IMG/VR virus record: IMGVR_UViG_3300028805_000080
Strand: one strand, 5' to 3'
Length of the DNA: 64,000 bases
Origin: a virus
Taxonomy: Duplodnaviria; Heunggongvirae; Uroviricota; Caudoviricetes
The notes beneath the pieces were generated by a model, which was given only the letters and a program-made list of their open reading frames with translations, did no database searches and was not told where the DNA came from. The position numbers were made by a program, and so were the translations under genes. Position 1 is the stretch's first letter, and each line of letters starts with the position of its first letter. Shown here piece by piece: positions 4,732-47,780 of the stretch.

Positions 4732-6075
4732 ATGATTGAAAATATTAAAGGATATTCATATAATGACTTGACAATTGTACCTAGTGTGATTTCAAAGATT
4801 TCTTCTCGTTCTCAATGCTGTTGTTGGGAAAGTGAAGATTTTTTACCTATTTGGACAGCTCCAATGGCAAGTGTAGTATCTCCAAAAAATAGAGAAGAAT
4901 TTGAAAATCATGGTATACATGCAATTATTCCAAGAAATATACCTTTGGAAGATAGAATCAAAGAAATGAATGATCATAATTGGGTAGCTTTGTCTTTAAG
5001 AGAGTTTGAAGATTTATTTATTACAAATTATAAAGATAGAACTTCTTATTGGTATGGTATTTGTGTAGATATTGCAAATGGACATATGTTATCTCTTTAT
5101 GAAAAAATTGAAAAAGCTAAACAATTGATAAAAGAGAATAATTCTTATCTTTCTATAATGACTGGTAATATTGCTAATCCAAAAACTTATGAATATATTG
5201 TAAAAAATTTTAATATATATAATCAAAAGACTGGAAAATATGATTGCTTAATTGATTATATTAGAGTTGGTATAGGTGGTGGATCTGGCTGCATAACTAC
5301 TAGTAATGTTTCTATTCATTATCCACAAGCTTCTCTTATAAATGAAACTTATAAAGTTAAAAAGAAACTTAAAAGTGAAACTGAAAGAGAAAATGCTTAT
5401 GAAAGCAGAGGAGTTTGGGGTAATCTTCCAAAAATCATTGCTGATGGTGGTATTCGTAATTATGATCATGTAATTAAAGCATTAGCATTAGGAGCTGATG
5501 GAGTAATGATTGGTAGTATTTTCTCTCAATGTATTGAATCTTCTGGAGATAAAACAACTAAAAATATCAATCAAAAACTTAATCTTAGATTTCATATAGA
5601 AAGATATAGAGATTTCTATAAAGATGATAAAGGAAATTGGTGTGGATATTATACCAATGAATTTATAGAAGAGAATAGTAAAGTTTGGAAGAAATCATTT
5701 AATGATATAAAAACTAAAGTTATTGCTGGTTTATTGTCAAAAGATGATGCAGAATATAAATTAGCTGCTTTACAATATAAAGATAAGATTAATAGTCTTA
5801 AAGAAGCTAAGTTTATTGGTAATATTGATGTAAAATTCTTTGGAATGGCTTCTGCTGATGGGCAAAAATCTATTGATGGAGAAAAGAAAAAGACAGCAGA
5901 AGGAATTACTAAATGGTTACCAGTTAAATATACTATAGAAGGTTGGGTAAAGAATATGGAAAGCTATTTACAATCAGCTATGTCATATTGTGATTGTAAT
6001 AAATTGTCAGATTTTATTGGAAAACCAACTCTTATTGTCAATTCAATTTCGGAGATTCAAGCAGTAAATAAATAA
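4732..6075 (+). CDS. IMP dehydrogenase / GMP reductase family (TIM-barrel) protein.
   Basis: N-terminal 'YNDLTIVPSVIS', then 'PIWTAPMASVVS'. Active-site loop 'GIGGGSGCITT' with the catalytic Cys. 'IADGGIRNYDHVIKALALGADGVMIGS' is present. No CBS pair is evident. Confidence 0.6.
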   Translation: MIENIKGYSYNDLTIVPSVISKISSRSQCCCWESEDFLPIWTAPMASVVSPKNREEFENHGIHAIIPRNIPLEDRIKEMNDHNWVALSLREFEDLFITNYKDRTSYWYGICVDIANGHMLSLYEKIEKAKQLIKENNSYLSIMTGNIANPKTYEYIVKNFNIYNQKTGKYDCLIDYIRVGIGGGSGCITTSNVSIHYPQASLINETYKVKKKLKSETERENAYESRGVWGNLPKIIADGGIRNYDHVIKALALGADGVMIGSIFSQCIESSGDKTTKNINQKLNLRFHIERYRDFYKDDKGNWCGYYTNEFIEENSKVWKKSFNDIKTKVIAGLLSKDDAEYKLAALQYKDKINSLKEAKFIGNIDVKFFGMASADGQKSIDGEKKKTAEGITKWLPVKYTIEGWVKNMESYLQSAMSYCDCNKLSDFIGKPTLIVNSISEIQAVNK

Positions 6076-13179: not shown

Positions 13180-14031
13180 ATGCGAAAATTTATTAATTGG
13201 ATGTTTGCACTTGTATGTGCATTTGTATTGACAACAGGATTGTCTAGTTGTATTGGTTGTACAACAGTTGATTCTGGTGAAGTAGGTATTAAGTTCCATA
13301 AGTGGTCTACTGATGAGACAAGCTATGGTGGTGTTGAAGGTACAGTTAAAGGTTGGGTATTCTATAATCCATTCTCAACCGATGTATTTACTTATCCAGT
13401 AAATGTTCAACGTAAGAATTATGAGGCTTTTACAGTAAATGCAAAGGATGCTTCAACATTTACTATGGATCCTATGATTGCTTATCATATCAATCCTGAC
13501 AAGGCATGTGATATTTTCGTGAAGTATCGTAAGCCAATTGAGGAGATTGAGAATGGCTATATTAGGACTTGTATTTATGAAGCTTATCGAACATGTGCTA
13601 ATAAGTATACATCTGATAGTTTGATGTCTAATCGAGAAAGATTTGAAGCAGATGTACGTACACGTCTAGAGAAGTCACTTGCAAATGAAGGATTTATTGT
13701 AGATGAGTTTACTTCAGCTATTAAGCCACCACAATCATTGAGTGATATGATTGATGCAAAGAATAAGGCGGTACAAGCAGCATTGAAAGCCGAGAATGAG
13801 GTAAAGGAAGCAGAAGCTAATGCAAAGATTAATGTTGCCAAGGCTAAAGGTAATGCAGAAGCTACAAAGATTAAGGCAGATGCTGAAGCTTATTACAATC
13901 GAACAATTGCAGCTTCACTTAGTCCTTTGATTGTACAAGAGGATTGGATTGAGAAGTGGGATGGTACTCTTCCTCAAACAGTTACTGGTGGAGCTTCAGG
14001 TACAATGTTAATGATAGGAGCAAATAAGTAA
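13180..14031 (+). CDS. SPFH/band-7 (prohibitin-like) domain lipoprotein.
   Basis: Signal peptide with lipobox 'LSSC'. 'GEVGIKFHKW...' SPFH-like core. Ala/Lys/Glu-rich C-terminal helix. Confidence 0.6.
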   Translation: MRKFINWMFALVCAFVLTTGLSSCIGCTTVDSGEVGIKFHKWSTDETSYGGVEGTVKGWVFYNPFSTDVFTYPVNVQRKNYEAFTVNAKDASTFTMDPMIAYHINPDKACDIFVKYRKPIEEIENGYIRTCIYEAYRTCANKYTSDSLMSNRERFEADVRTRLEKSLANEGFIVDEFTSAIKPPQSLSDMIDAKNKAVQAALKAENEVKEAEANAKINVAKAKGNAEATKIKADAEAYYNRTIAASLSPLIVQEDWIEKWDGTLPQTVTGGASGTMLMIGANK

Positions 14032-39051: not shown

Positions 39052-41748
39052 ATGGCCATTTTAGATTTTATTGATTGTATAAATACATTTTCAAGTAATA
39101 TAAATATAAATATATCTTCCAGTTCTACTCTTACTAATTATCTTCAAGATATATATAATGAATGTAAAGATCAATATAATGGAACAACTAGAAATGGATT
39201 ATCATTATTTTATAATCAATCATTATTTCCTAATGTATATGATTATTTTGTAAATGATAGTTCATCTTTAGGAACTACTGATAATGCTATAAATTCATTA
39301 ATAGGATGGTGTATGGCATTAGTATTAACCGAAATTATACCTAAAAAAAGAAATACTATATTAAAAGTCGGATATGAATTAGGAGGATATGATAAAAATA
39401 GTAGATTATATGGATATAGCTTTAAAAAAGATCCAATGGTTGCTAGATTAGTAGCAGGAGCTATTTATGTTACAATGAGATCAACAAAAAATCCAGATAA
39501 AGCTACTATGAAAAGTGAAGTAGGAACTAATAGTGATGGTTGGAACTGGAGTTTTCAAAATGGATATGATACATCATCTACTGCAGTAGGAGAAGATAAT
39601 TTTTTTATTGATTTTAGAGGTTTTATGCCTACTGCGCCAGGTCCTAATCATTCTTCTAGTATACCTGATTCAAAAGATAGTTATAATAATATACAAGTTG
39701 ATAGAGATATTCATGAAAATACAATAGTACCTAATTATAATTTAGATAGTGGATCTTATCGTCAAGAAACTGCTCAAGCTATATCCGATAAAGATATGGA
39801 AGTTGAACATTATTTTGGATCTAGTATTACAGTTTCTGGATATACAATTAGTCCTATATTTGGATCATTACATAGTAAAATTGATCGTACCGATGGCTTT
39901 GGGAAGTTTATGCATTGGGTTACAAGAACTGGAATGGCATCTAGAAAAATTTTACAAAATACATCTGAATATTATAGATTTAGACCAGGATGTGGATGGG
40001 ATTCAGCTAATACAAAAAATTCAACTAGTGATGATAGACGTAATGCTTTAGCTGACTTTGATATAGAAGATAGTGATGGAAGTAAGGAATTTTGGGATGA
40101 ATCAGGTACTGGAATATCCCACTATTATTATGATGAAAATGGTAATTGGACTAAATCAGATATAAAATCTGCATCAGAATATAAAAATGCTCAACAAACT
40201 TCATTACATAATAATTCTTATCCTTCCGGACATTCATCTGGTATTTGGTGTGTTGGACAGACTTTAATGGAATTATATCCAAGTCAAGCTACTACTATTA
40301 TGCAAACTTGTAATAGATTTGCTATTGAGAGAACTATTTGTAGATATCACTGGACATCAGATACAATTATAGGAAGAGTATTAGGAAGTGCAGCTAATGC
40401 ATTATTACATGCTACAAGTGATTATGATACAATTAAAGGAGGAAATTATAGTTCTTTAACTAATCTTACATTACCATCAGGAGGATCTTCTGGTGGAGGA
40501 AGCTCTATTACAACAGAAACAGGTGATGCTAATTTAAATAATGAACCAACCGAAGTTAATAGAGAAGGTAATTTTTCTGCAACTGGCAAACATAATAGTC
40601 TTAGTGGTGGTTTAAATGCTGATGGAACAACTTATACATCACCAGAAGAATTAGGAACTATAACATTAATAAATACGACATTAGGAGTTCCTAGTATTCT
40701 AGGTATATATATAGCAGAAGGAGGATCTTCTATGTTGAATTTAGCAGATATTTTCATTGAACAACCTGTAGAAACTCCTAATACATTAACAATTAAAACA
40801 TCAAAAGTATTATCTAATGGAAATAATACATATCGTAGAGTTAAAGTAGCATTTGGATGGAATAGTGGAGCTATACAAGGTTATGTAAATGTATATCAAA
40901 AAGCTAATTCTGGATCTGGAGGAAGTGGAGGATCAGGTGGATCTGGTGGTGGTTCTAATGTAAATCCAAGTGGTGGCTCAACTGGTTCTAGTGATGATAG
41001 TGGAACTCAAGGATCAGATAATATTGGAGGAATAGGAAATATTAGACTATTAAAATATAAGAAAGATATTATTCATGAAGTAGCATCTAGAATATCTCCA
41101 ATAGATGATCTTCAAATATATGGACTTTCTTATAATGGACTTACTTTATATTCATATTTTCATAATGATATTTGTATTGACTTACAAGATTTATGGAGTC
41201 ATTATTATAATTTAAGAGTAGAATATGACAAACTTAAATTATTTTATGATAGCTATAAAACATGGGCAGATAATAATTTAGAAGATTTAAATACAATACT
41301 ATCTGAATTACCAGGTATTTATAATGCTATTAACCAAGCAAATAGTGATATTCCTGATTTTGATTATACTGAAACAGTAATAGATAGTATAACTGTTAAT
41401 GATGATGGTGATCCAGTAGTTTCATCACATACAGAAACACATTATCCATTTAGTGGATGGTCAATGGATAATTTTACAGTTTCTCAATTAAATGATAATA
41501 ATATTCCTGATCCTAATGATATTGATCCTCCAGTAGTTAATCTAGCTGAGCAAGGAAAGCTTTATGATGAATATACTTATACTTGGCATAAAGGATCATC
41601 AACTTATGGAATGCCTTATGAAGATGTGCAAATGCCAGATATAATTTCTTATGTGCCAACAATACAAAATTATTGGCAAGCACAAATCTATACTTATATG
41701 AAATGGAGTAACAATCAATTTGATAGTCATTATCCATTGACACCTTAA
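39052..41748 (+). CDS. Large modular protein with a PAP2/class-A acid-phosphatase-like domain and Gly/Ser linkers.
   Basis: '...YRFRP...', then 'SYPSGHSSG' (PSGH), then 'ERTICRYHWTSD' (R-x5-H-x3-D). Linkers 'GGSSGGGSS' and 'SGSGGSGGSGGSGGGS'. Confidence 0.45.
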   Translation: MAILDFIDCINTFSSNININISSSSTLTNYLQDIYNECKDQYNGTTRNGLSLFYNQSLFPNVYDYFVNDSSSLGTTDNAINSLIGWCMALVLTEIIPKKRNTILKVGYELGGYDKNSRLYGYSFKKDPMVARLVAGAIYVTMRSTKNPDKATMKSEVGTNSDGWNWSFQNGYDTSSTAVGEDNFFIDFRGFMPTAPGPNHSSSIPDSKDSYNNIQVDRDIHENTIVPNYNLDSGSYRQETAQAISDKDMEVEHYFGSSITVSGYTISPIFGSLHSKIDRTDGFGKFMHWVTRTGMASRKILQNTSEYYRFRPGCGWDSANTKNSTSDDRRNALADFDIEDSDGSKEFWDESGTGISHYYYDENGNWTKSDIKSASEYKNAQQTSLHNNSYPSGHSSGIWCVGQTLMELYPSQATTIMQTCNRFAIERTICRYHWTSDTIIGRVLGSAANALLHATSDYDTIKGGNYSSLTNLTLPSGGSSGGGSSITTETGDANLNNEPTEVNREGNFSATGKHNSLSGGLNADGTTYTSPEELGTITLINTTLGVPSILGIYIAEGGSSMLNLADIFIEQPVETPNTLTIKTSKVLSNGNNTYRRVKVAFGWNSGAIQGYVNVYQKANSGSGGSGGSGGSGGGSNVNPSGGSTGSSDDSGTQGSDNIGGIGNIRLLKYKKDIIHEVASRISPIDDLQIYGLSYNGLTLYSYFHNDICIDLQDLWSHYYNLRVEYDKLKLFYDSYKTWADNNLEDLNTILSELPGIYNAINQANSDIPDFDYTETVIDSITVNDDGDPVVSSHTETHYPFSGWSMDNFTVSQLNDNNIPDPNDIDPPVVNLAEQGKLYDEYTYTWHKGSSTYGMPYEDVQMPDIISYVPTIQNYWQAQIYTYMKWSNNQFDSHYPLTP

Positions 41749-41765
41749 AAATATTAAATTTATAT

Positions 41766-42335
41766 ATGCGAGATATATTTATTAGAAGTATTTTAGCTGG
41801 TATCTCTATTGGTTTAGGAGGAGCTATATTTCTTAAGCTTGGAGGAATTATTGGAGCAATTATGTTTGCTTTTGGATTATTGATAGTAGTTCACTTTAAA
41901 TTACCATTATATACAGGAACAGCAGGATTCATTGAAGTCAATAAGTTTCAAGAATGGCTTAATATGTTTATAATATTAATTGGAAACATTATTGGATGCT
42001 TCTTGTTATCATTATTGAATATAAAAGGAATTGATGGATCTCAAATAATCCAATCAAGAATAGATGGAGGATTATTGAATGGATTATTAATGGGTATTGG
42101 GTGTGGATTGATAATGACATTAATAGTTAAAGGAGGAAGAGATAAGAATCTTCTATTGATATTATTTGGAATTCCTTTATTTATTCTATTAGGATTCTAT
42201 CATTCAATTGCTGATGCTTTCTATTTTGCAGTTTCTAATATGAATTTAGAATATTTACCAATCTATTTTATAATTGTGTTAGGTAATTTTATTGGTTGTA
42301 ATATTCCTAGGATTTTAAAATATAATAAAGAATAA
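41766..42335 (+). CDS. Compact formate/nitrite transporter (FNT)-family channel-like membrane protein.
   Basis: Six hydrophobic helices. 'GFYHSIADA' resembles the FNT 'GFEHSIANM' signature. 'EWLNMFIILIGNIIG' and 'VLGNFIGCNI' resemble FocA segments. Confidence 0.45.
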   Translation: MRDIFIRSILAGISIGLGGAIFLKLGGIIGAIMFAFGLLIVVHFKLPLYTGTAGFIEVNKFQEWLNMFIILIGNIIGCFLLSLLNIKGIDGSQIIQSRIDGGLLNGLLMGIGCGLIMTLIVKGGRDKNLLLILFGIPLFILLGFYHSIADAFYFAVSNMNLEYLPIYFIIVLGNFIGCNIPRILKYNKE

Positions 42336-43364: not shown

Positions 43365-43533
43365 ATAACGTTAAATCTAATATTCTTAAATCTAATTACT
43401 ATGAAAAACACTTTTTATTTAAAAATTTTTTATTATTAATTTGAAATTGATAAAATAATTTATCTATTTTAATTTAACAAGATGAAGAAATTCATTTTGG
43501 AGCAACTAAATATATTAACATAAAATTTAAATT

Positions 43534-45462
43534 ATGAGCAACAAAAAGATTATTGGTATCGATCTTGGTACTACAAATTCATGTGTAGCCGTATTTGAAG
43601 GTGGCGAATCACAAGTTATTGTAAATTCAGAAGGTAAACGTACTACTCCTTCAGTAGTTGGTTTTACTAAAGATGGAGAACGTAAAGTTGGTGATGCAGC
43701 AAAGCGTCAAGCAATTACAAATCCGAATAATACTGTTTATTCTATAAAGCGTTATATGGGTATTACTTATGATAAGGTTAAAGATACAGATAAGAAGGTG
43801 CCTTATCATCTTATTAATGAAAACAACCTTCCTAAAGTGGATATTGATGGAAAGAAATATACTCCACAAGAAATTTCTTCTATGATTCTTACTAAAATGA
43901 AAAAGACGGCAGAGGACTATCTTGGAAATGAAGTTACTGAAGCAGTTATTACTGTTCCAGCCTACTTTGATGACCAACAACGACAAGCAACAATTGAAGC
44001 TGGTAAAATTGCTGGTCTTGATGTAAAGCGTATTGTAAATGAGCCAACTGCTGCAGCACTTGCTTATGGTATTGATAAGTCAGATAAGGATATGAAGATT
44101 GTAGTATTTGATTTTGGTGGCGGTACTCATGATGTATCTATTCTAGATTTTGGAAGTGGAGTATTTGAAGTATTAGCTACTGGTGGAGACACTCATCTTG
44201 GTGGTGATGATATTGATAATATTCTTATTAATTATATGGTTGATGAGTTCAAGAAAGATAAAGGTGTTGACTTGACAAAAGATCCAATGGCAATGCAACG
44301 ACTTAAAGAAGCTGCAGAAAAAGCAAAGATTGAACTTTCTTCATCAACAACAACAGAGATTAATCTTCCTTATATTACAGCTAATGAGAATGGACCTCAA
44401 CATCTAGTAATGAATATTACTCGTGCTAAGTTTGAACAATTGATAGATCCTATTATCAAGCGTACTATTGAGCCATGTCGTACAACTCTTGAGCAAGCAA
44501 AGCTTTCTACATCAGATATTGATGAAGTTATTCTTGTTGGTGGTTCTACTCGTATTCCGGCAGTTCAAGAAGCTGTAAAGAATTTCTTTGGTAAAGAACC
44601 TTCTAAAGGTGTTAATCCTGATGAAGTAGTTGCTATTGGTGCATCTATTCAAGGAGCTATTCTTAATAAAGAAGAAGGAGTAGGTGATATTGTTCTTTTG
44701 GATGTAACTCCTATTTCTATGGGTATTGAAGCACATAATCAATTTGATCCTGAAGGACGTATGGCAAAGCTTATTGAGGCTCAAACAACTATTCCTTGTC
44801 GTAAGTCACAAACATTTACTACAGCAGTAGATAATCAAACAGCAGTAACTATTGTAGTTCTTCAAGGTGAGCGTACTTATGCAAAAGATTGTAAGACTAT
44901 TGGTACATTTAATCTTGAAGGCATTGCACCAGCTAAAGCAGGTATTCCTCAAATCGAAGTAACATTTGATATTGATGCTAATGGTGTATTGAAAGTTTCA
45001 GCAAAGGATCAAGCAACTGGTAAGGAGCAAAAGATTACAATTCAAAACAATAATCTTTCTGATGATGAAATTGAAAGAATGAAAGCTGATGCAGAAGTTC
45101 ATAAAGAGGAAGACAAGAAACGAGAAGAATTGATGAATAAGTTGAATATGAGTCAAATGTTTATTAATTCTATTGATCAAGCATTGAATGATGATAATCT
45201 AAAAGATAAGATTACAGATGAAGATCGTAATAATATAACTTCTGCAAAGGATAATCTTGACACACTTCTTAAGGAATATCAAAAAGCAGAAAATAAAGAA
45301 GATGCTATGTCAAAGATTGAGGAAGCACAAAAAGCTCTTGAAGAAGCATGGAATCCAGTAGCTCAAAAGATTTATGCTCAAGCACAAGCTTCTAATCCTC
45401 AAGGAGCACAAGCATCTAATCCATTTGGAGATATATTCAATGGAGCAGGTAATACTCAATAA
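43534..45462 (+). CDS. dnaK: Hsp70 chaperone DnaK.
   Basis: '[14 protein letters not shown]', '[10 protein letters not shown]' and '[11 protein letters not shown]' are present. Full-length with a C-terminal lid. Confidence 0.9.
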
Positions 45463-45546
45463 TAAATATATAATTTAAACTCTCAATAGGATTCTCTTGT
45501 AGAGTCCTTATAATAAAAAAATTCAATATAATTGGAGGTAATTATT

Positions 45547-45990
45547 ATGAAAAATGCTTTAAGTTTTTGGAAACCAATGAATTTATTTGGTTTTAATGAT
45601 GATTGGTTTGATGATTTTAAAGATCCATTCTTTGGAATTTCTAAGACTTTTACCAATTCCCCTAAAGTAAACATTAAGGAAACTGATAAAGCGTATGAAA
45701 TAGAAATTGCCAATCCTGGATTTACAAAAGATGAGACAAAGATTAAGATTGAAGATGGAGTACTTTATGTATCAATGATTTCTGAGTCTAAAGATGAGAA
45801 AGAAGATGATCAAAAGTATCATGTACATCAATGGTCAAAATCTACTTATCATGAATCTTGGAAACTTCCTGAAAATGTAATTGAAGATCAAATTGTTGCA
45901 AAGAACAATGATGGAGTTCTTGTTATTACATTACCTAAGAAGGAAGAAGAGATTAAGAAAGTTGAATCAAGGACAATTGAAATTGAATAA
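45547..45990 (+). CDS. Hsp20/alpha-crystallin small heat-shock protein. Start is probably this ATG, not the track's upstream non-ATG start.
   Basis: 'VNIKETDKAYEIEIANPGFTKDETKIKIEDGVLYV...LPKKEEE' ACD pattern. GGAGG Shine-Dalgarno sequence 8-9 nt upstream of the ATG. Confidence 0.7.
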   Translation: MKNALSFWKPMNLFGFNDDWFDDFKDPFFGISKTFTNSPKVNIKETDKAYEIEIANPGFTKDETKIKIEDGVLYVSMISESKDEKEDDQKYHVHQWSKSTYHESWKLPENVIEDQIVAKNNDGVLVITLPKKEEEIKKVESRTIEIE

Positions 45991-46049
45991 TTTTATTAAG
46001 AGTTTAATTGGGATGGGACATGTCCCATCCCATTTTTAATTTTTAATAT

Positions 46050-47093
46050 ATGGCAAAAGATTATTATAAGATATTAGGTATAGATAAGAATGCTACTGAA
46101 GATGAGATAAAGAAAGCTTATCGTAAAGCTGCAGTAAAATGGCATCCAGATAGATGGACAGATAAGTCAGAGAAAGAAAGAAAAGAAGCAGAAGATAAGT
46201 TCAAAGAAATCACAGAAGCAAATAATGTATTGAGTGATCCTGATAAGAGAGCTAAATATGACAAGTTTGGTGATAATTGGGAGCAAGCTCATGGATTTGA
46301 TTTTGACTTTGGTGGCTTTGATGATATAATGGGTGATTTCTTTGGAAGAAGACGTAAACCTAAAGGACCTTATCCAGGTCAAACAATTACAATGAACTAT
46401 TATATTGATATTCATGATATATTCAATGGTGTCAATAAAGATATTGAGATTGATGTAGATGTAAGATGTCCAAGTTGTAATGGTACTGGTGGTGAAAGTG
46501 AGATTTGTAGTCATTGTCATGGTACTGGTATGATTTCAAGAACTAACAAGACTCCATTTGGTATTATTTCTCAAGAGTCACCTTGCCCATATTGTCATGG
46601 ATTAGGAAGAATAATCAAGAAGACTTGCTCAGATTGTCATGGAGCAGGAATGAAAAAGAAGACTAGAAAAATCAAGTTGAATATCAAACCATTTACCCAA
46701 AATGGATATCCAATGAAATTTACTGGTATGGGATATGAGTCAAAAGATCCTAAAGGACTTAATGGAGATTTGATTATTCAAGTAATTTATAATATTGATT
46801 CAAAGAAATATGTAATTCAAGGAAATACTGTATATGAGAAAATAACTATTCCATATTATGATTGTATATTAGGAACAACTATGAAAGTAAAGTTGCCTAA
46901 TAACAAAGAAAAAGAGATTACTATTAAACCACTTTCTAATAATGGTGATAATGTTGTATTATATAATGAAGGAATAAATGGAGGACAATATATATTTGTT
47001 ATTGAACCAGAATTACCAAAGAGAACATTAAGTAACAAGCTTTCTAATGAAGAGAAAGAACTATTAGAAAAGATTAAGAAATTACATAAATAA
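46050..47093 (+). CDS. dnaJ: Hsp40 co-chaperone DnaJ.
   Basis: J-domain 'DYYKILGIDKNATEDEIKKAYRKAAVKWHPDR'. Four CxxCxGxG zinc-finger repeats. G/F region. Confidence 0.85.
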   Translation: MAKDYYKILGIDKNATEDEIKKAYRKAAVKWHPDRWTDKSEKERKEAEDKFKEITEANNVLSDPDKRAKYDKFGDNWEQAHGFDFDFGGFDDIMGDFFGRRRKPKGPYPGQTITMNYYIDIHDIFNGVNKDIEIDVDVRCPSCNGTGGESEICSHCHGTGMISRTNKTPFGIISQESPCPYCHGLGRIIKKTCSDCHGAGMKKKTRKIKLNIKPFTQNGYPMKFTGMGYESKDPKGLNGDLIIQVIYNIDSKKYVIQGNTVYEKITIPYYDCILGTTMKVKLPNNKEKEITIKPLSNNGDNVVLYNEGINGGQYIFVIEPELPKRTLSNKLSNEEKELLEKIKKLHK

Positions 47094-47141: not shown

Positions 47142-47720
47142 ATGACTAGTCAACAATTAGACGAAAAATATTCTCAATTAACTGGTATTCATACTGCAGT
47201 TTCTGAATTAATTGAAGCAGCTTCTACAGCTGAAGAAAAGAAAAAGACTTATGATCATTTAATGTGGCATATCAAGAATGGTCTTATTCGTGGTGTTGAT
47301 GGAATTAAAGAATTAGTAGAAGAAGTTCTTCCCGCTTTAGCCGAAGCTCTTGAACAACCATCTACAGCAGAACCAAGTGAAGAAGATGAATCTAAATATA
47401 CAGCAGAAGAAGCTGCTGCTTATAATTTACAACTTGATAATGCATTACAATATGGAGCAATTAAGACTCCTGCAGTAGAAGCTGTTGAAGCACAAGATGC
47501 GGTTCTTTATGAAGATGTTGAAGAATATAATGCCGCTAAAGGAACAGAATTAACTGAAGAGCAATTTGAAGAATTAGATGAAGAAGAAAAGATTAAGACT
47601 CCTGCAGTAGAAGCTGTTGAAGCACAAGATGCTATTCCTTATACAAATGAAGAAGTAGATGCTTATAATGCCACATTACTAGGAGCAGTACATGCGGGTG
47701 ATACAAAGTCTAATTCATAA
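47142..47720 (+). CDS. Acidic Ala/Glu-rich protein with an internal exact duplication.
   Basis: 'IKTPAVEAVEAQDA' occurs twice. GC-richer codon usage. Confidence 0.4.
   Translation: MTSQQLDEKYSQLTGIHTAVSELIEAASTAEEKKKTYDHLMWHIKNGLIRGVDGIKELVEEVLPALAEALEQPSTAEPSEEDESKYTAEEAAAYNLQLDNALQYGAIKTPAVEAVEAQDAVLYEDVEEYNAAKGTELTEEQFEELDEEEKIKTPAVEAVEAQDAIPYTNEEVDAYNATLLGAVHAGDTKSNS
47460..47632 (+). repeat. Two exact 41-bp direct repeats (attaagactcctgcagtagaagctgttgaagcacaagatgc) 132 bp apart, in frame within the CDS.
   Basis: Read directly from the sequence. Coordinates approximate. Confidence 0.7.
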
Positions 47721-47748: not shown

Positions 47749-47780
47749 AAGGTGAACAGTAATGTTCACCTTTTCTATTT
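47749..47780 (+). terminator. Rho-independent terminator after the acidic-protein gene.
   Basis: 10-bp stem aaggtgaaca/tgttcacctt with loop gtaa, then ttttctattt. Confidence 0.55.

Follow-up and report, generated by a model that had tools for sequence, protein, structure and literature searches.

Does a complete Hsp70 chaperone set in a phage genome represent a block of host genes captured lately, or a part of the phage that is handed down within its own lineage? The question is raised by a window of 64,000 nucleotides, the whole stretch of DNA analysed here, which lies on a contig of 321,221 bp. The window belongs to a phage, with a baseplate wedge, topoisomerase II and helicases present, it reads well in the standard genetic code, and no tRNA genes were found in it. 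Three contiguous open reading frames on its plus strand encode DnaK (43534-45462), Hsp20 (45547-45990) and DnaJ (46050-47093), an assignment made in a preliminary description of this DNA and upheld by the ORFs and their Pfam domains. Such systems were said there to be rare in phages, and indeed a DnaK match is found in 43 of the 50,697 records of a GenBank-derived phage collection; several of these "phage" records resemble bacterial contigs. Phage DnaK, DnaJ and Hsp20 as such are already known from PHROG families, Lak phages and moraphages. What is new here is the Shine-Dalgarno (SD) sequence of hsp20 in all 61 sampled loci, the remodelling of the DnaK arch and latch, and the finding that, of the three genes, hsp20 is the best conserved. 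We consider it probable that this Hsp70 module has been inherited vertically and has adapted to phages, within a lineage from animal gut and rumen whose members are huge (about 220-474 kb). This reading starts from direct observations: what the genes are, that their motifs are intact, where DnaK falls in the tree, how the codons match those of the window, the synteny, and the conservation of leaders and SD.

The first gene, dnaK, encodes a full-length Hsp70 of 642 aa (Pfam HSP70 E 2.4e-240, residues 6-613) with NBD, linker, SBD-beta and helical lid. It passes both NCBIfam DnaK equivalogs (NF001413, 892.7 against a cut-off of 648; TIGR02350, 871.4 against 822.55) and is matched by E. coli DnaK structures at E 1e-200. 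The residues for ATPase activity and J-interaction are conserved throughout, the interdomain linker reads IVLLD, and D8, K70, E171, D194, T199, D201, R167, N170, T173, D393 and G32 are invariant in 18/18 examined members of the DnaK clade. The second gene encodes an alpha-crystallin small heat-shock protein (sHsp) of 147 aa (Pfam HSP20 E 6e-20, 71.7 bits against a cut-off of 20.8; phrog_432 9e-22; wheat Hsp16.9 6.5e-12). Its N-terminal arm is rich in Phe and Trp, and the signatures A-x-x-x-x-G-V-L (here AKNNDGVL) and C-terminal I-E-I are conserved over 17 homologues. The third gene encodes a class A (type I) J-domain protein of 347 aa, whose Pfam domains all score above cut-off (J domain 1.5e-25, CXXCXGXG 1.6e-14, DnaJ_C 9.3e-20). 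It has HPD at residues 32-34, a short G/F stretch (GFDFDFGGFDDIMGDFFG) and, as had been claimed, all four zinc fingers (CPSCNGTG, CSHCHGTG, CPYCHGLG, CSDCHGAG). It matches phrog_14336 (3.3e-62) and Streptococcus DnaJ 6jzb (8.7e-46), and at 285.8 bits it stays under the NCBIfam DnaJ_bact equivalog cut-off of 377.2, which marks it by sequence as a divergent DnaJ. With every catalytic and co-chaperone motif intact, this very large phage carries a complete and apparently functional DnaK-sHsp-DnaJ set.

The preliminary description further proposed a recent acquisition from a host. On such a view dnaK, hsp20 and dnaJ would have been captured lately, and the SD and higher GC would be left-overs of the donor. 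The cassette was described as a GC-richer block with a distinct codon profile, of which the first half stands: its GC is 0.30-0.35 against a window mean of 0.262, and four other 1-kb windows reach 0.31-0.34. The second half does not, and the excess is located in codon positions 1 and 2 (GC1/GC2/GC3 of DnaK 0.54/0.35/0.15). Compared across the window, synonymous usage of the trio is not distinct but the same as in the rest of the phage, with GC3s values (0.125, 0.150, 0.152) inside the spread of the other genes (0.117±0.046, n=57) and codon likelihood scores at the 27th, 21st and 41st percentile. Higher GC of a conserved gene in an AT-rich genome is therefore a matter of amino-acid composition and not of foreign origin, which corrects a common shortcut. 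Low GC3 alone is not enough to dismiss a low-GC donor, however, since one low-GC Paludibacteraceae dnaK has a GC3s of 0.166.

Phylogeny bears on the question as well. The nearest cellular DnaKs are those of gut and rumen Bacteroidales, as recent capture would have it, yet they are only 59-66% identical, the best reaching 66% over its full length; for Bacteroidota DnaKs the figure is about 63%. By comparison, 51 relatives fall at 73-100% identity on contigs of up to 454 kb, those at 73-99% all being on huge-phage contigs, and the next identities are 70% or less. In a neighbour-joining tree with just five non-Bacteroidota outgroups, the window DnaK clade is phage-only (100% bootstrap), and Bacteroidota form a group with LR7565xx phages (97%) that excludes it. 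The window clade joins the DnaKs of Lak megaphages and of what we call type B phages (for example L095, 388 kb; L097, 221 kb; an IMG/VR contig of 435 kb) at 86%, a grouping of which long-branch attraction could be the source. Moreover, none of the hits retrieved for hsp20 is a close bacterial relative, and the sigma-54-type promoters of Bacteroidales dnaK genes are absent in the phage. A phage-specific DnaK clade outside the Bacteroidota, together with codon usage that matches the genome, contradicts recent acquisition, which we regard as very unlikely even though the SD sits on hsp20 alone. The dnaK ancestor was probably acquired in the distant past, from a source resembling Bacteroidota, and then evolved inside phages.

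The surroundings of the cassette lead to the same answer. It occupies the same slot on independent contigs of 220-474 kb, among them L004 (454 kb), L008 (264 kb), L052 (410 kb), L095 and L097, amid flanking phage genes that are just 42-86% identical, and its synteny extends to phages with flanking genes of about 50% identity. In 61 metagenome loci, collected via protein similarity, DnaK is encoded upstream in 50 of the 52 cases open to testing and DnaJ downstream in 44 of 45. The dN/dS values of the cassette (0.11-0.44) signify purifying selection, although they are rough figures with dS saturated at 0.7-1.1. These data also bear on a chimeric contig, in which assembly or binning would have fused a bacterial chaperone operon to phage DNA, a thought encouraged by the bacterial-looking records mentioned above and by one relative binned as "Firmicutes". 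As independent assemblies, drawn from different samples and studies, repeat the gene order and the flanks, composition and codon usage run on into the flanks, and no SD-free bacterium of 26% GC matches the cassette genes, the probability of such an artefact is negligible.

The host of this inherited module is most likely a member of the Bacteroidales, to judge from the nearest DnaKs, the A-rich, SD-free leaders and the relatives of the baseplate wedge. The latter are found in Sphingomonas phage PAU, in Bacteroidota jumbo phages, in Lak and in genomes of the Mahaphage clade, the last of these being assigned to Bacteroidetes hosts by Al-Shayeb 2020; the homologues in Lak, other huge metagenomic phages and cultured Bacteroidota jumbo phages are distant.

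Putative regulatory features are conserved along with the genes. Directly before dnaK lies a leader box, GAGCAACTAAATATATTAACATAAAATTTAAATT (43500..43533, plus strand), that is kept across cassette loci. In 11 of 12 loci it takes the form GAGCWACTAwAAATAT..AACATAAAT and stands 28-37 nt ahead of the ATG, L118 having the variant GAGCTACAA, and it occurs also in phages whose DnaK is just 53% identical. The 64-kb window holds a single exact match to it, and mismatched matches stay at chance level. Immediately 5' of the box is a hairpin (43478..43499, plus strand; 9-bp stem, -8.6 kcal/mol in RNAfold), and in 11/12 cassette loci a hairpin of 7-12 bp with a differing stem sequence ends at this same spot; that of L118, whose variant box escaped the anchor search, was left out of the comparison. 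Past the dnaK stop, the hairpin GGATTCTC-TTG-TAGAGTCC (45489..45507, plus strand) can be read in the sequence. It recurs with compensatory changes in L004, L095, L096, L115, L116, L118 and L119, is absent from L052 and L097 and, as it is not followed by a T-run, is no canonical terminator. An intrinsic terminator does follow hsp20 (46009..46042, plus strand), in which TGGGATGGGAC-ATGT-CCCATCCCA forms 10 pairs (6 G-C) before the T-run TTTTTAATTT, and its hairpin is kept with stem variants in L004, L008 and L052. Beyond dnaJ comes orf192 (47142..47720, plus strand), an acidic ORF of 192 aa with a repeated IKTPAVEAVEAQDA unit, apparently co-transcribed with dnaJ and followed by a terminator-like hairpin (47749..47772, plus strand; 10-bp stem, then TTCTATTTTA). 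It has no match in Pfam, PHROG or NCBIfam and its AF2 single-sequence model is unusable (pLDDT 47), but about 50 N-terminal residues are similar by eye to those of the post-dnaJ ORFs of L004 and L008, and orf192 may be a further member of the module. Two transcription units would result: one from the leader hairpin and box through dnaK and hsp20 to the terminator, the other from dnaJ through orf192 to the final hairpin.

A further conserved element precedes hsp20, where the leader (45526..45546, plus strand) contains GGAGG at 45534-45538 and the spacer TAATTATT; the GGAGG, which reads GGAGGT with the next letter, stands 8 nt ahead of the ATG at 45547. The preliminary description called this a textbook SD with almost no counterpart in the window, and it was right: among 83 called ORFs, hsp20 alone has a correctly spaced GGAGG, a weaker AGGAG at the ORF starting at 14031 is the sole other SD-like case, and upstream regions of the window genes are A-rich, with about 6% G and no SD signal. 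One well-placed GGAGG among 83 genes is unremarkable in itself (about 0.13 are expected from the 34 GGAGG in the window), and it is conservation in relatives that makes it significant. Over 12 loci, mean pairwise identity is 0.89 at -21..-1 of hsp20 versus 0.46 at -60..-22. GGAGG is present in 61/61 metagenome loci and in all 32 distinct leaders, 29 of which have it at the exact position of the window, and its distance to the ATG is 7-9 nt, usually 8. The leader motif is unique within the window, and at the remaining gene starts of these phages no GGAGG is well placed. Judged by these alignments, the hsp20 SD is under strong purifying selection.

Several roles can be considered for the element. 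High expression, the plain reason, is doubtful because Bacteroidales, if they are the host, reportedly have ribosomes that make no use of SD sequences; in Bacteroidia these are reported to be SD-blind, with the anti-SD sequestered (PMC7797042, PMC9976891). The same reports lend weight to the view that the GGAGG is not ribosome-binding at all but a protein or small-RNA site, a processing site, or part of a thermosensing hairpin (UUCAAU/AUUGGA). This last variant is modelled on elements controlling bacterial sHsp genes. Only GGAGGU can pair with 16S, yet AATT and the spacer are also nearly fixed, and part of the SD is paired in the minimum-free-energy fold. Placing and spacing are nevertheless exactly SD-like in every one of the 61 loci, the predicted fold does not surpass those of shuffled sequence (z = -0.72), Rfam has no match, thermometer family or other, and the supposed partner TTCAAT is neither kept in all loci nor covarying. 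We take a role other than ribosome binding to be conceivable but less likely than not. RNA thermometers of the ROSE, fourU and hsp17 types were considered and rejected on the Rfam, fold and covariation results. A bolder proposal is that the invariant SD acts as a regulatory switch, read by a subset of host Bacteroidia ribosomes with an exposed anti-SD, and, together with the rebuilt DnaK described below, makes the cassette a phage-specific, client-dedicated system; we regard it as a long shot. Ribosomes lacking bS21, or altered by stress or phage, are candidates for such exposure. The rpsU (bS21) gene of Flavobacterium johnsoniae likewise has a lone, strong, conserved SD in an SD-less genome, where an extended pairing (about -20 kcal/mol) autoregulates bS21 (PMC9976891, PMC13000453). 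The pairing here is a 6-nt core on a phage sHsp gene, and the window yielded no bS21 gene; the analogy serves only as a lead.

While the catalytic face of the window DnaK is canonical, its substrate site is not. The hydrophobic arch, for which we took Met or Leu at 404 with Ala429 as the criterion (Mayer 2021, PMC8215388), is remodelled, with His at 404 in 18/18 clade members and A429 kept. M404H is accompanied by T403A, G405N/T and V407R and, in loop L1,2, by an insertion of 5 residues. The lid latch R467-D540 (plus D431-H544) is lost as well: 19/19 clade members have R467A and D540Q, whereas R467 is kept in 36/36 and D540 in 35/36 Bacteroidota DnaKs, position 544 being already variable in these. 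Such remodelling suggests a narrowed or shifted client range. Given a DnaJ that scores below its equivalog cut-off and a DnaK with non-canonical arch and latch, generalist activity of the pair is not assured.

A specialised client is also what one would expect if phage DnaK and DnaJ acted mainly on host circuits, in counter-defence or takeover, and not in folding phage proteins. Imaginable targets are DnaJ-dependent immune sensors, chaperone-addicted toxin-antitoxin systems, heat-shock regulation and lambda-type remodelling of replication complexes. Precedents exist, as phage sensing by bNACHT25 is mediated by DnaJ and the J-protein of RB43 acts on sigma-32, both according to studies cited in PMC12619734, and the lambda O-P-DnaB complex is taken apart by DnaK (PMC8215388). 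On the other hand, PADLOC gave no match for the cassette genes or their neighbours, a class A DnaJ and an sHsp with a Phe/Trp-rich arm make up the classic hold-and-refold set, and the cassette stands amid morphogenesis-type genes (baseplate wedge, Ig-domain and LRR proteins). We think counter-defence or host takeover unlikely as the main role.

If the module folds phage proteins, where does nucleotide exchange come from? The earlier statement that the window lacks grpE agrees with phmmer searches with two GrpE probes, which found none in the window or related loci; a pattern-based scan found none in two large relatives, and none of 39 GrpE-bearing IMG/VR contigs is a cassette contig. The DnaK clade nonetheless keeps the cleft residues K/R55, R56, E/D264 and E267, whose bridges K55-E267 and R56-E264 have been linked to slow, GrpE-dependent exchange (Mayer 2021, PMC8215388), and the loop at G32 has the Bacteroidales sequence NSEGK. 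Host GrpE would be the supplier. A divergent or distant grpE is possible in this phage, because Lak-A, Lak-C and LR756504 carry grpE at loci far from dnaK.

Comparison with known systems helps to place the module. Lak megaphages (Prevotella phages of about 540-550 kb) are likewise huge phages of gut Bacteroidales with adjacent dnaK and dnaJ, and their DnaK shares with that of the window a TPI(S/T) motif, an MSNK N-terminus, a replaced T403 and a lost arch Met/Leu (M404N in Lak). However, identity is just 49% for DnaK and 36% for DnaJ, Lak DnaK is without the loop insertion and conservatively keeps the latch (R467K, D540E), no hsp20 match is found in Lak genomes, and these use an alternative genetic code. 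Type B phages have the same gene order, the hsp20 SD leader and the dnaK box with hairpin, and hsp20 is the gene best conserved between them and type A; they differ in one added ORF (128-255 aa, no family) between hsp20 and dnaJ, and their Lak-like DnaK is 52-54% identical to that of the window. Moraphages, large aquatic phages with predicted Bacteroidota hosts, carry DnaK and DnaJ, some of them also Hsp20 (Arch Virol 2025, PMC12619734). According to that paper their DnaKs are nested in Flavobacteriaceae, interpreted as recent transfer, which sets them apart from the gut lineage described here; operon, SD and substrate-site features are not reported in it. Cyanophage Hsp20 (phrog_432; about 32-35% identical to the window sHsp) and stand-alone J-proteins such as RB43 Rki are precedents for single components, which are thought to recruit host Hsp70.

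The E. coli DnaK-DnaJ-GrpE system with IbpA/IbpB comprises the same families with the same expected division of labour (PMC8215388). A gammaproteobacterial DnaK, that of Sodalis, shares about 56% identity with the window DnaK, whose ATPase, linker and J-binding residues are all identical to those of E. coli DnaK. Unlike in E. coli, no grpE was found, the sHsp lies inside the operon and is not an IbpA/B equivalog (NCBIfam), the arch (M404H plus 5 aa) and latch are changed, and the G/F region of DnaJ is short. In the resulting model, of which we infer the host, its GrpE, the clients and the transcription units, translation of hsp20 would start at the invariant SD and the sHsp would keep aggregation-prone phage proteins recoverable by DnaK and DnaJ. 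DnaJ would bring clients and set off ATP hydrolysis by DnaK, and the purpose of the whole would be the folding and assembly of the very large proteome of the phage.

Phage Hsp70 systems have been listed in surveys of huge phages and hardly analysed. The present case indicates that a megaphage lineage can own such a system from old and inherit it stably, so that it is no passing host-derived gene. Its DnaK keeps the interfaces to ATP, DnaJ and probably host GrpE while the client site is rebuilt, which suggests specialised clients and provides a natural experiment in Hsp70 specificity. The lone conserved SD, in phages of hosts said to be SD-blind, gives a testable handle on specialised translation in infected Bacteroidia. 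If it were indeed a switch, sHsp synthesis would follow the condition of the translation apparatus in the course of megaphage infection, and with the rebuilt DnaK the cassette would be no copy of the host heat-shock system but one with translational control of its own.

On the + strand lie dnaK (43534-45462; 642 aa, Pfam HSP70 E 2.4e-240), hsp20 (45547-45990; 147 aa when the ATG is taken as the start, with a Pfam match) and dnaJ (46050-47093; 347 aa), and ORFs and Pfam together bear out the complete chaperone cassette proposed in the preliminary description. The TTG at 45532, which the ORF finder chose as the start of hsp20, is an unlikely one since it sits upstream of the Shine-Dalgarno (SD) sequence. 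DnaK scores above both NCBIfam DnaK equivalog cut-offs and matches E. coli DnaK structures at E 1e-200. Its residues were numbered via Sodalis DnaK standing in for the E. coli protein and cross-checked on the E. coli structure alignment. Inactive ATPase motifs had been named as grounds for doubting function; instead, the catalytic residues D8, K70, E171, D194, T199 and D201 are invariant in the DnaK clade, as are the J-domain contacts R167, N170 and T173, the linker and G32. The DnaJ has a J domain with HPD, a short G/F stretch, all four CxxCxGxG zinc motifs and a C-terminal domain, and scores under the NCBIfam DnaJ cut-off (285.8 < 377.2). In the small heat shock protein (sHsp, Hsp20), the alpha-crystallin domain, GVL signature and terminal I-E-I are all present.

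The terminator scan placed a strong terminator 3' of hsp20 (46009-46042, +) and another 3' of the 192-aa ORF that follows dnaJ (47749-47772, +), which suggests two units, dnaK-hsp20 and dnaJ-orf192. A sigma-70 promoter scan did no better than chance, with 34 found against 32.9 expected. The 192-aa ORF (ORF192, 47142-47720) holds the unit IKTPAVEAVEAQDA twice. Since a 148-aa version lies beside an identical DnaK on another contig (L002:4169-4615), the copy number of the IKTPAVEAVEAQDA unit may vary between contigs.

It is in the substrate site that this DnaK departs from the norm. In every member of the window clade (type A), the universal GIET(M/L)G-GVMT is replaced by a 16-residue version, with the substitutions T403A, M404H and V407R and, at the loop L1,2 tip, an insertion of five residues, and the latch pair R467 and D540 has become Ala and Gln. 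The arch Met is also absent (M404N) from the DnaKs of Lak and of the type B phages, which have a Lak-like DnaK and an extra ORF between hsp20 and dnaJ, but these retain the latch. Position 404 of DnaK is Met or Leu; specificity is altered by arch changes, and client release is slowed by the latch (Mayer 2021, PMC8215388).

The preliminary description saw no grpE in the window, and at the level of a probe search this holds: GrpE probes found nothing below E = 0.3 among six-frame ORFs of the window and all fetched cassette loci. GrpE is encoded far from dnaK in Lak-A, Lak-C and LR756504; the homologous ORFs in Lak-A1 (L122, 219 aa) and LR756504 (L123, 200 aa) carry an FxxxxHxA motif. A pattern-based scan recovered 39 GrpE-bearing IMG/VR contigs of up to 554 kb, none of them a cassette contig, the 435-kb and 410-kb ones included. 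HscA is independent of GrpE since it lacks the cleft salt-bridge residues (PMC8215388). Because the phage DnaK retains these (K55-E267 and R56-E264), it would be expected to need an exchange factor. ORF192 (AF2 model pLDDT 47) and the ORFs of 128-255 aa that relatives carry between hsp20 and dnaJ were candidates for this role, but none of them has any family match. As far as the window, a part of its source genome, shows, use of the host GrpE is the simplest reading.

The preliminary description also took the cassette for a recent acquisition with a distinct codon profile. The block is indeed GC-richer (0.30-0.35 vs 0.262 for the window), but it is the first and second codon positions that carry the excess, as in DnaK with GC1/GC2/GC3 of 0.54/0.35/0.15. 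The cassette genes have GC3s of 0.125, 0.150 and 0.152 (remaining genes 0.117±0.046) and fall at the 27th, 21st and 41st percentile of a synonymous-codon likelihood score. Because both measures are within the range of the other genes, the codon profile is the phage's own. GC3s of Bacteroidales dnaK is mostly 0.49-0.69, with one low-GC Paludibacteraceae at 0.166. Across the window, GC skew flips sign at every switch of gene orientation (23000, 37000, 48000 and 54000), and no tRNA or Rfam family was found there.

Protein searches with DnaK returned 51 proteins at 73-100% identity, on contigs of up to 454 kb, before a step to 70% or less; the exact sequence sits on a 321,221-bp metagenome contig. 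The nearest cellular DnaKs in a genome scan are from Bacteroidales (Prevotellaceae, Bacteroidaceae and Paludibacteraceae), at 59-66% identity. In neighbour-joining (distance-based) trees with 100 bootstraps, the window clade is monophyletic (100%) and joins type B and Lak (86%). Their sister group is Bacteroidota plus three Mahaphage-clade genomes (LR7565xx; 97%), and phage and Bacteroidota DnaKs together stand apart from five other phyla (97%). This cassette recurs on 454-kb, 264-kb and 410-kb contigs in the same neighbourhood, with an FNT-like membrane protein 5' and LRR and Ig-domain proteins 3', although these flanking proteins share just 42-86% identity with those of the window. A protein-based scan of JGI metagenomes gave 67 loci; of those that could be tested, 50 of 52 have DnaK upstream and 44 of 45 have DnaJ downstream. 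dN/dS is 0.11-0.44, with dS saturated. Taken together, the identity step, the phage clade, the synteny with diverged flanks and dN/dS support long vertical inheritance in a lineage whose DnaK groups with Lak's. The recent acquisition is thus rejected on both comparisons proposed for it, since DnaK falls in a phage-only clade and the codons are those of the genome. By its sequence, the cassette appears to be an ancient, phage-adapted Hsp70-sHsp-DnaJ module.

The more distant type B phages (221-435 kb) have the order dnaK-hsp20-ORF-dnaJ, and in a 225-kb pig-gut phage dnaK and dnaJ stand together with no hsp20. Between types A and B, Hsp20 is 68-73% identical, DnaK 52-54% and DnaJ 49-50%; the reverse is normal in cells, where Hsp70 is much better conserved than sHsps. 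One type B phage carries, 6 kb downstream of its cassette, a truncated ORF with a weak match to the N-terminus of ribosomal protein L12 (L096:12361-12435). The 410-kb relative (L052; ONIZ01000001.1, 410,106 bp), from a rumen bin labelled 'uncultured Firmicutes bacterium RUG343', carries the phage cassette and is also in IMG/VR as a viral genome; this scaffold very likely represents a huge phage placed in the wrong bin.

Phage chaperones as such are already known. PHROGs holds families for phage DnaK (phrog_22485), Hsp20 (phrog_432) and full-length DnaJ (phrog_14336), and a 2025 paper described Moraphages that encode DnaK and DnaJ, some of them also Hsp20 (PMC12619734). A jumbo-phage survey lists sporadic DnaJ and cyanophage Hsp20, and a prior report counted DnaK-type ATPases in huge phages; chaperones go unmentioned in the papers on Lak and huge phages. 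What is new is in the details, namely the operon of this lineage with its SD and the remodelled DnaK. When the region was searched by megablast against GenBank phages, the sole match was a 73% dnaK fragment (LR756502), so a close deposited relative is absent among them, and the best Hsp20 homologue in a GenBank-derived phage collection reaches 40%. Records for Listeria phage LM 4-11-1, Staphylococcus phage SA 1306 Kay, Enterococcus phage Efs 1-1-1 and similar (H4, H7-H12, H15, H17; H86-H93) carry grpE-dnaK-dnaJ at bacterial-like identity and resemble bacterial DNA deposited under a phage name.

The window itself is phage DNA of ~26% GC encoding a baseplate wedge, topoisomerase II, helicases and Ig-domain tail or head proteins. 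The wedge has distant relatives (24-31% identity) in Sphingomonas phage PAU, in jumbo phages of Tenacibaculum, Chryseobacterium and Flavobacterium, and in Lak and LR7565xx genomes, the last two groups being assigned to Bacteroidetes hosts by Al-Shayeb et al. We infer a Bacteroidales host. Just 5' of the cassette (39052-42335) are two cargo genes unusual for a phage, one for an 898-aa protein that combines a PAP2 phosphatase domain with long Gly/Ser linkers and one for the 189-aa formate/nitrite-transporter-like (FNT-like) protein, which relatives also encode; a 447-aa IMP dehydrogenase/GMP reductase-like gene lies at 4732-6075 (Pfam IMPDH 1.4e-29; phrog_9582). PADLOC found no defence-system match.

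Upstream of dnaK (43478-43533, +), a hairpin adjoins the box GAGCWACTAwAAATAT..AACATAAAT. The stem sequence varies between phages while the box is conserved, and 11 of 12 loci share this layout, among them those of phages whose DnaK is just 53% identical. The box fails as a general phage promoter motif, since within 64 kb it occurs nowhere but at the cassette. Bacteroidales dnaK genes (L010-L041) have a sigma-54-type -24/-12 element, TTGGCAC-N5-TTGC, ~60-110 nt upstream, whereas the phage dnaK leader has no such boxes. An A-rich ATATTAAC-type stretch near the ATG, common to phage and host dnaK, was too weak for interpretation. Two relatives have an insert in dnaK at one shared codon boundary, DFGG|GTHD in the phosphate-2 motif (L052:2491-4000; Lak-B4, L094:6592-7179). 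The inserts (~1.5 kb and ~590 nt, respectively) share 5' and 3' sequence blocks and, like group I introns, come after U and end in G; the larger holds a 373-aa endonuclease-like ORF (phrog_15137, 5.7e-8). Rfam gave no match at E≤0.1 on either locus.

The claim of a lone clear SD was well founded: a well-placed GGAGG occurs in 1 of 83 window ORFs, 8 nt before the hsp20 ATG (45534-45538, +), where upstream regions are A-rich with ~6% G. Related loci repeat the pattern: of ~300 ORFs there, hsp20 alone has an SD at its start. Across 12 loci, pairwise identity of the hsp20 leader is 89% at -21..-1 vs 46% at -60..-22. GGAGG is present in every one of the 61 complete loci (32/32 distinct leaders) of an unbiased metagenome set, at an identical position in 29 of the 32. 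Pairing with the 16S tail is limited to GGAGGU, yet the spacer TAATTATT is fixed. The leader folds no better than shuffled sequences, Rfam at gathering cut-offs matched no thermometer, leader family or group I model in the window, and a single occurrence in 64 kb, at the cassette, speaks against a general phage promoter motif. An exact-match scan with the 22-nt leader returned 11 unrelated prophage contigs, a chance identity of SD regions; in these mid-GC IMG/VR contigs of 5-56 kb (L098, L101, L102, L104, L105, L108-L113) it precedes an unrelated 125-aa ORF.

Bacteroidia ribosomes are reported to be blind to the SD, their anti-SD being sequestered by bS21, bS18 and bS6, and SD-led rpsU is translated by bS21-free ribosomes (PMC7797042, PMC9976891, PMC13000453). 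A bS21 probe (approximate sequence) found nothing below E = 0.3 in six-frame ORFs of the window and phage loci. If the host is a member of the Bacteroidales, the invariant hsp20 SD is unexplained. This makes it the most interesting lead, and the interest of the cassette rises if the SD is a signal for specialised translation.
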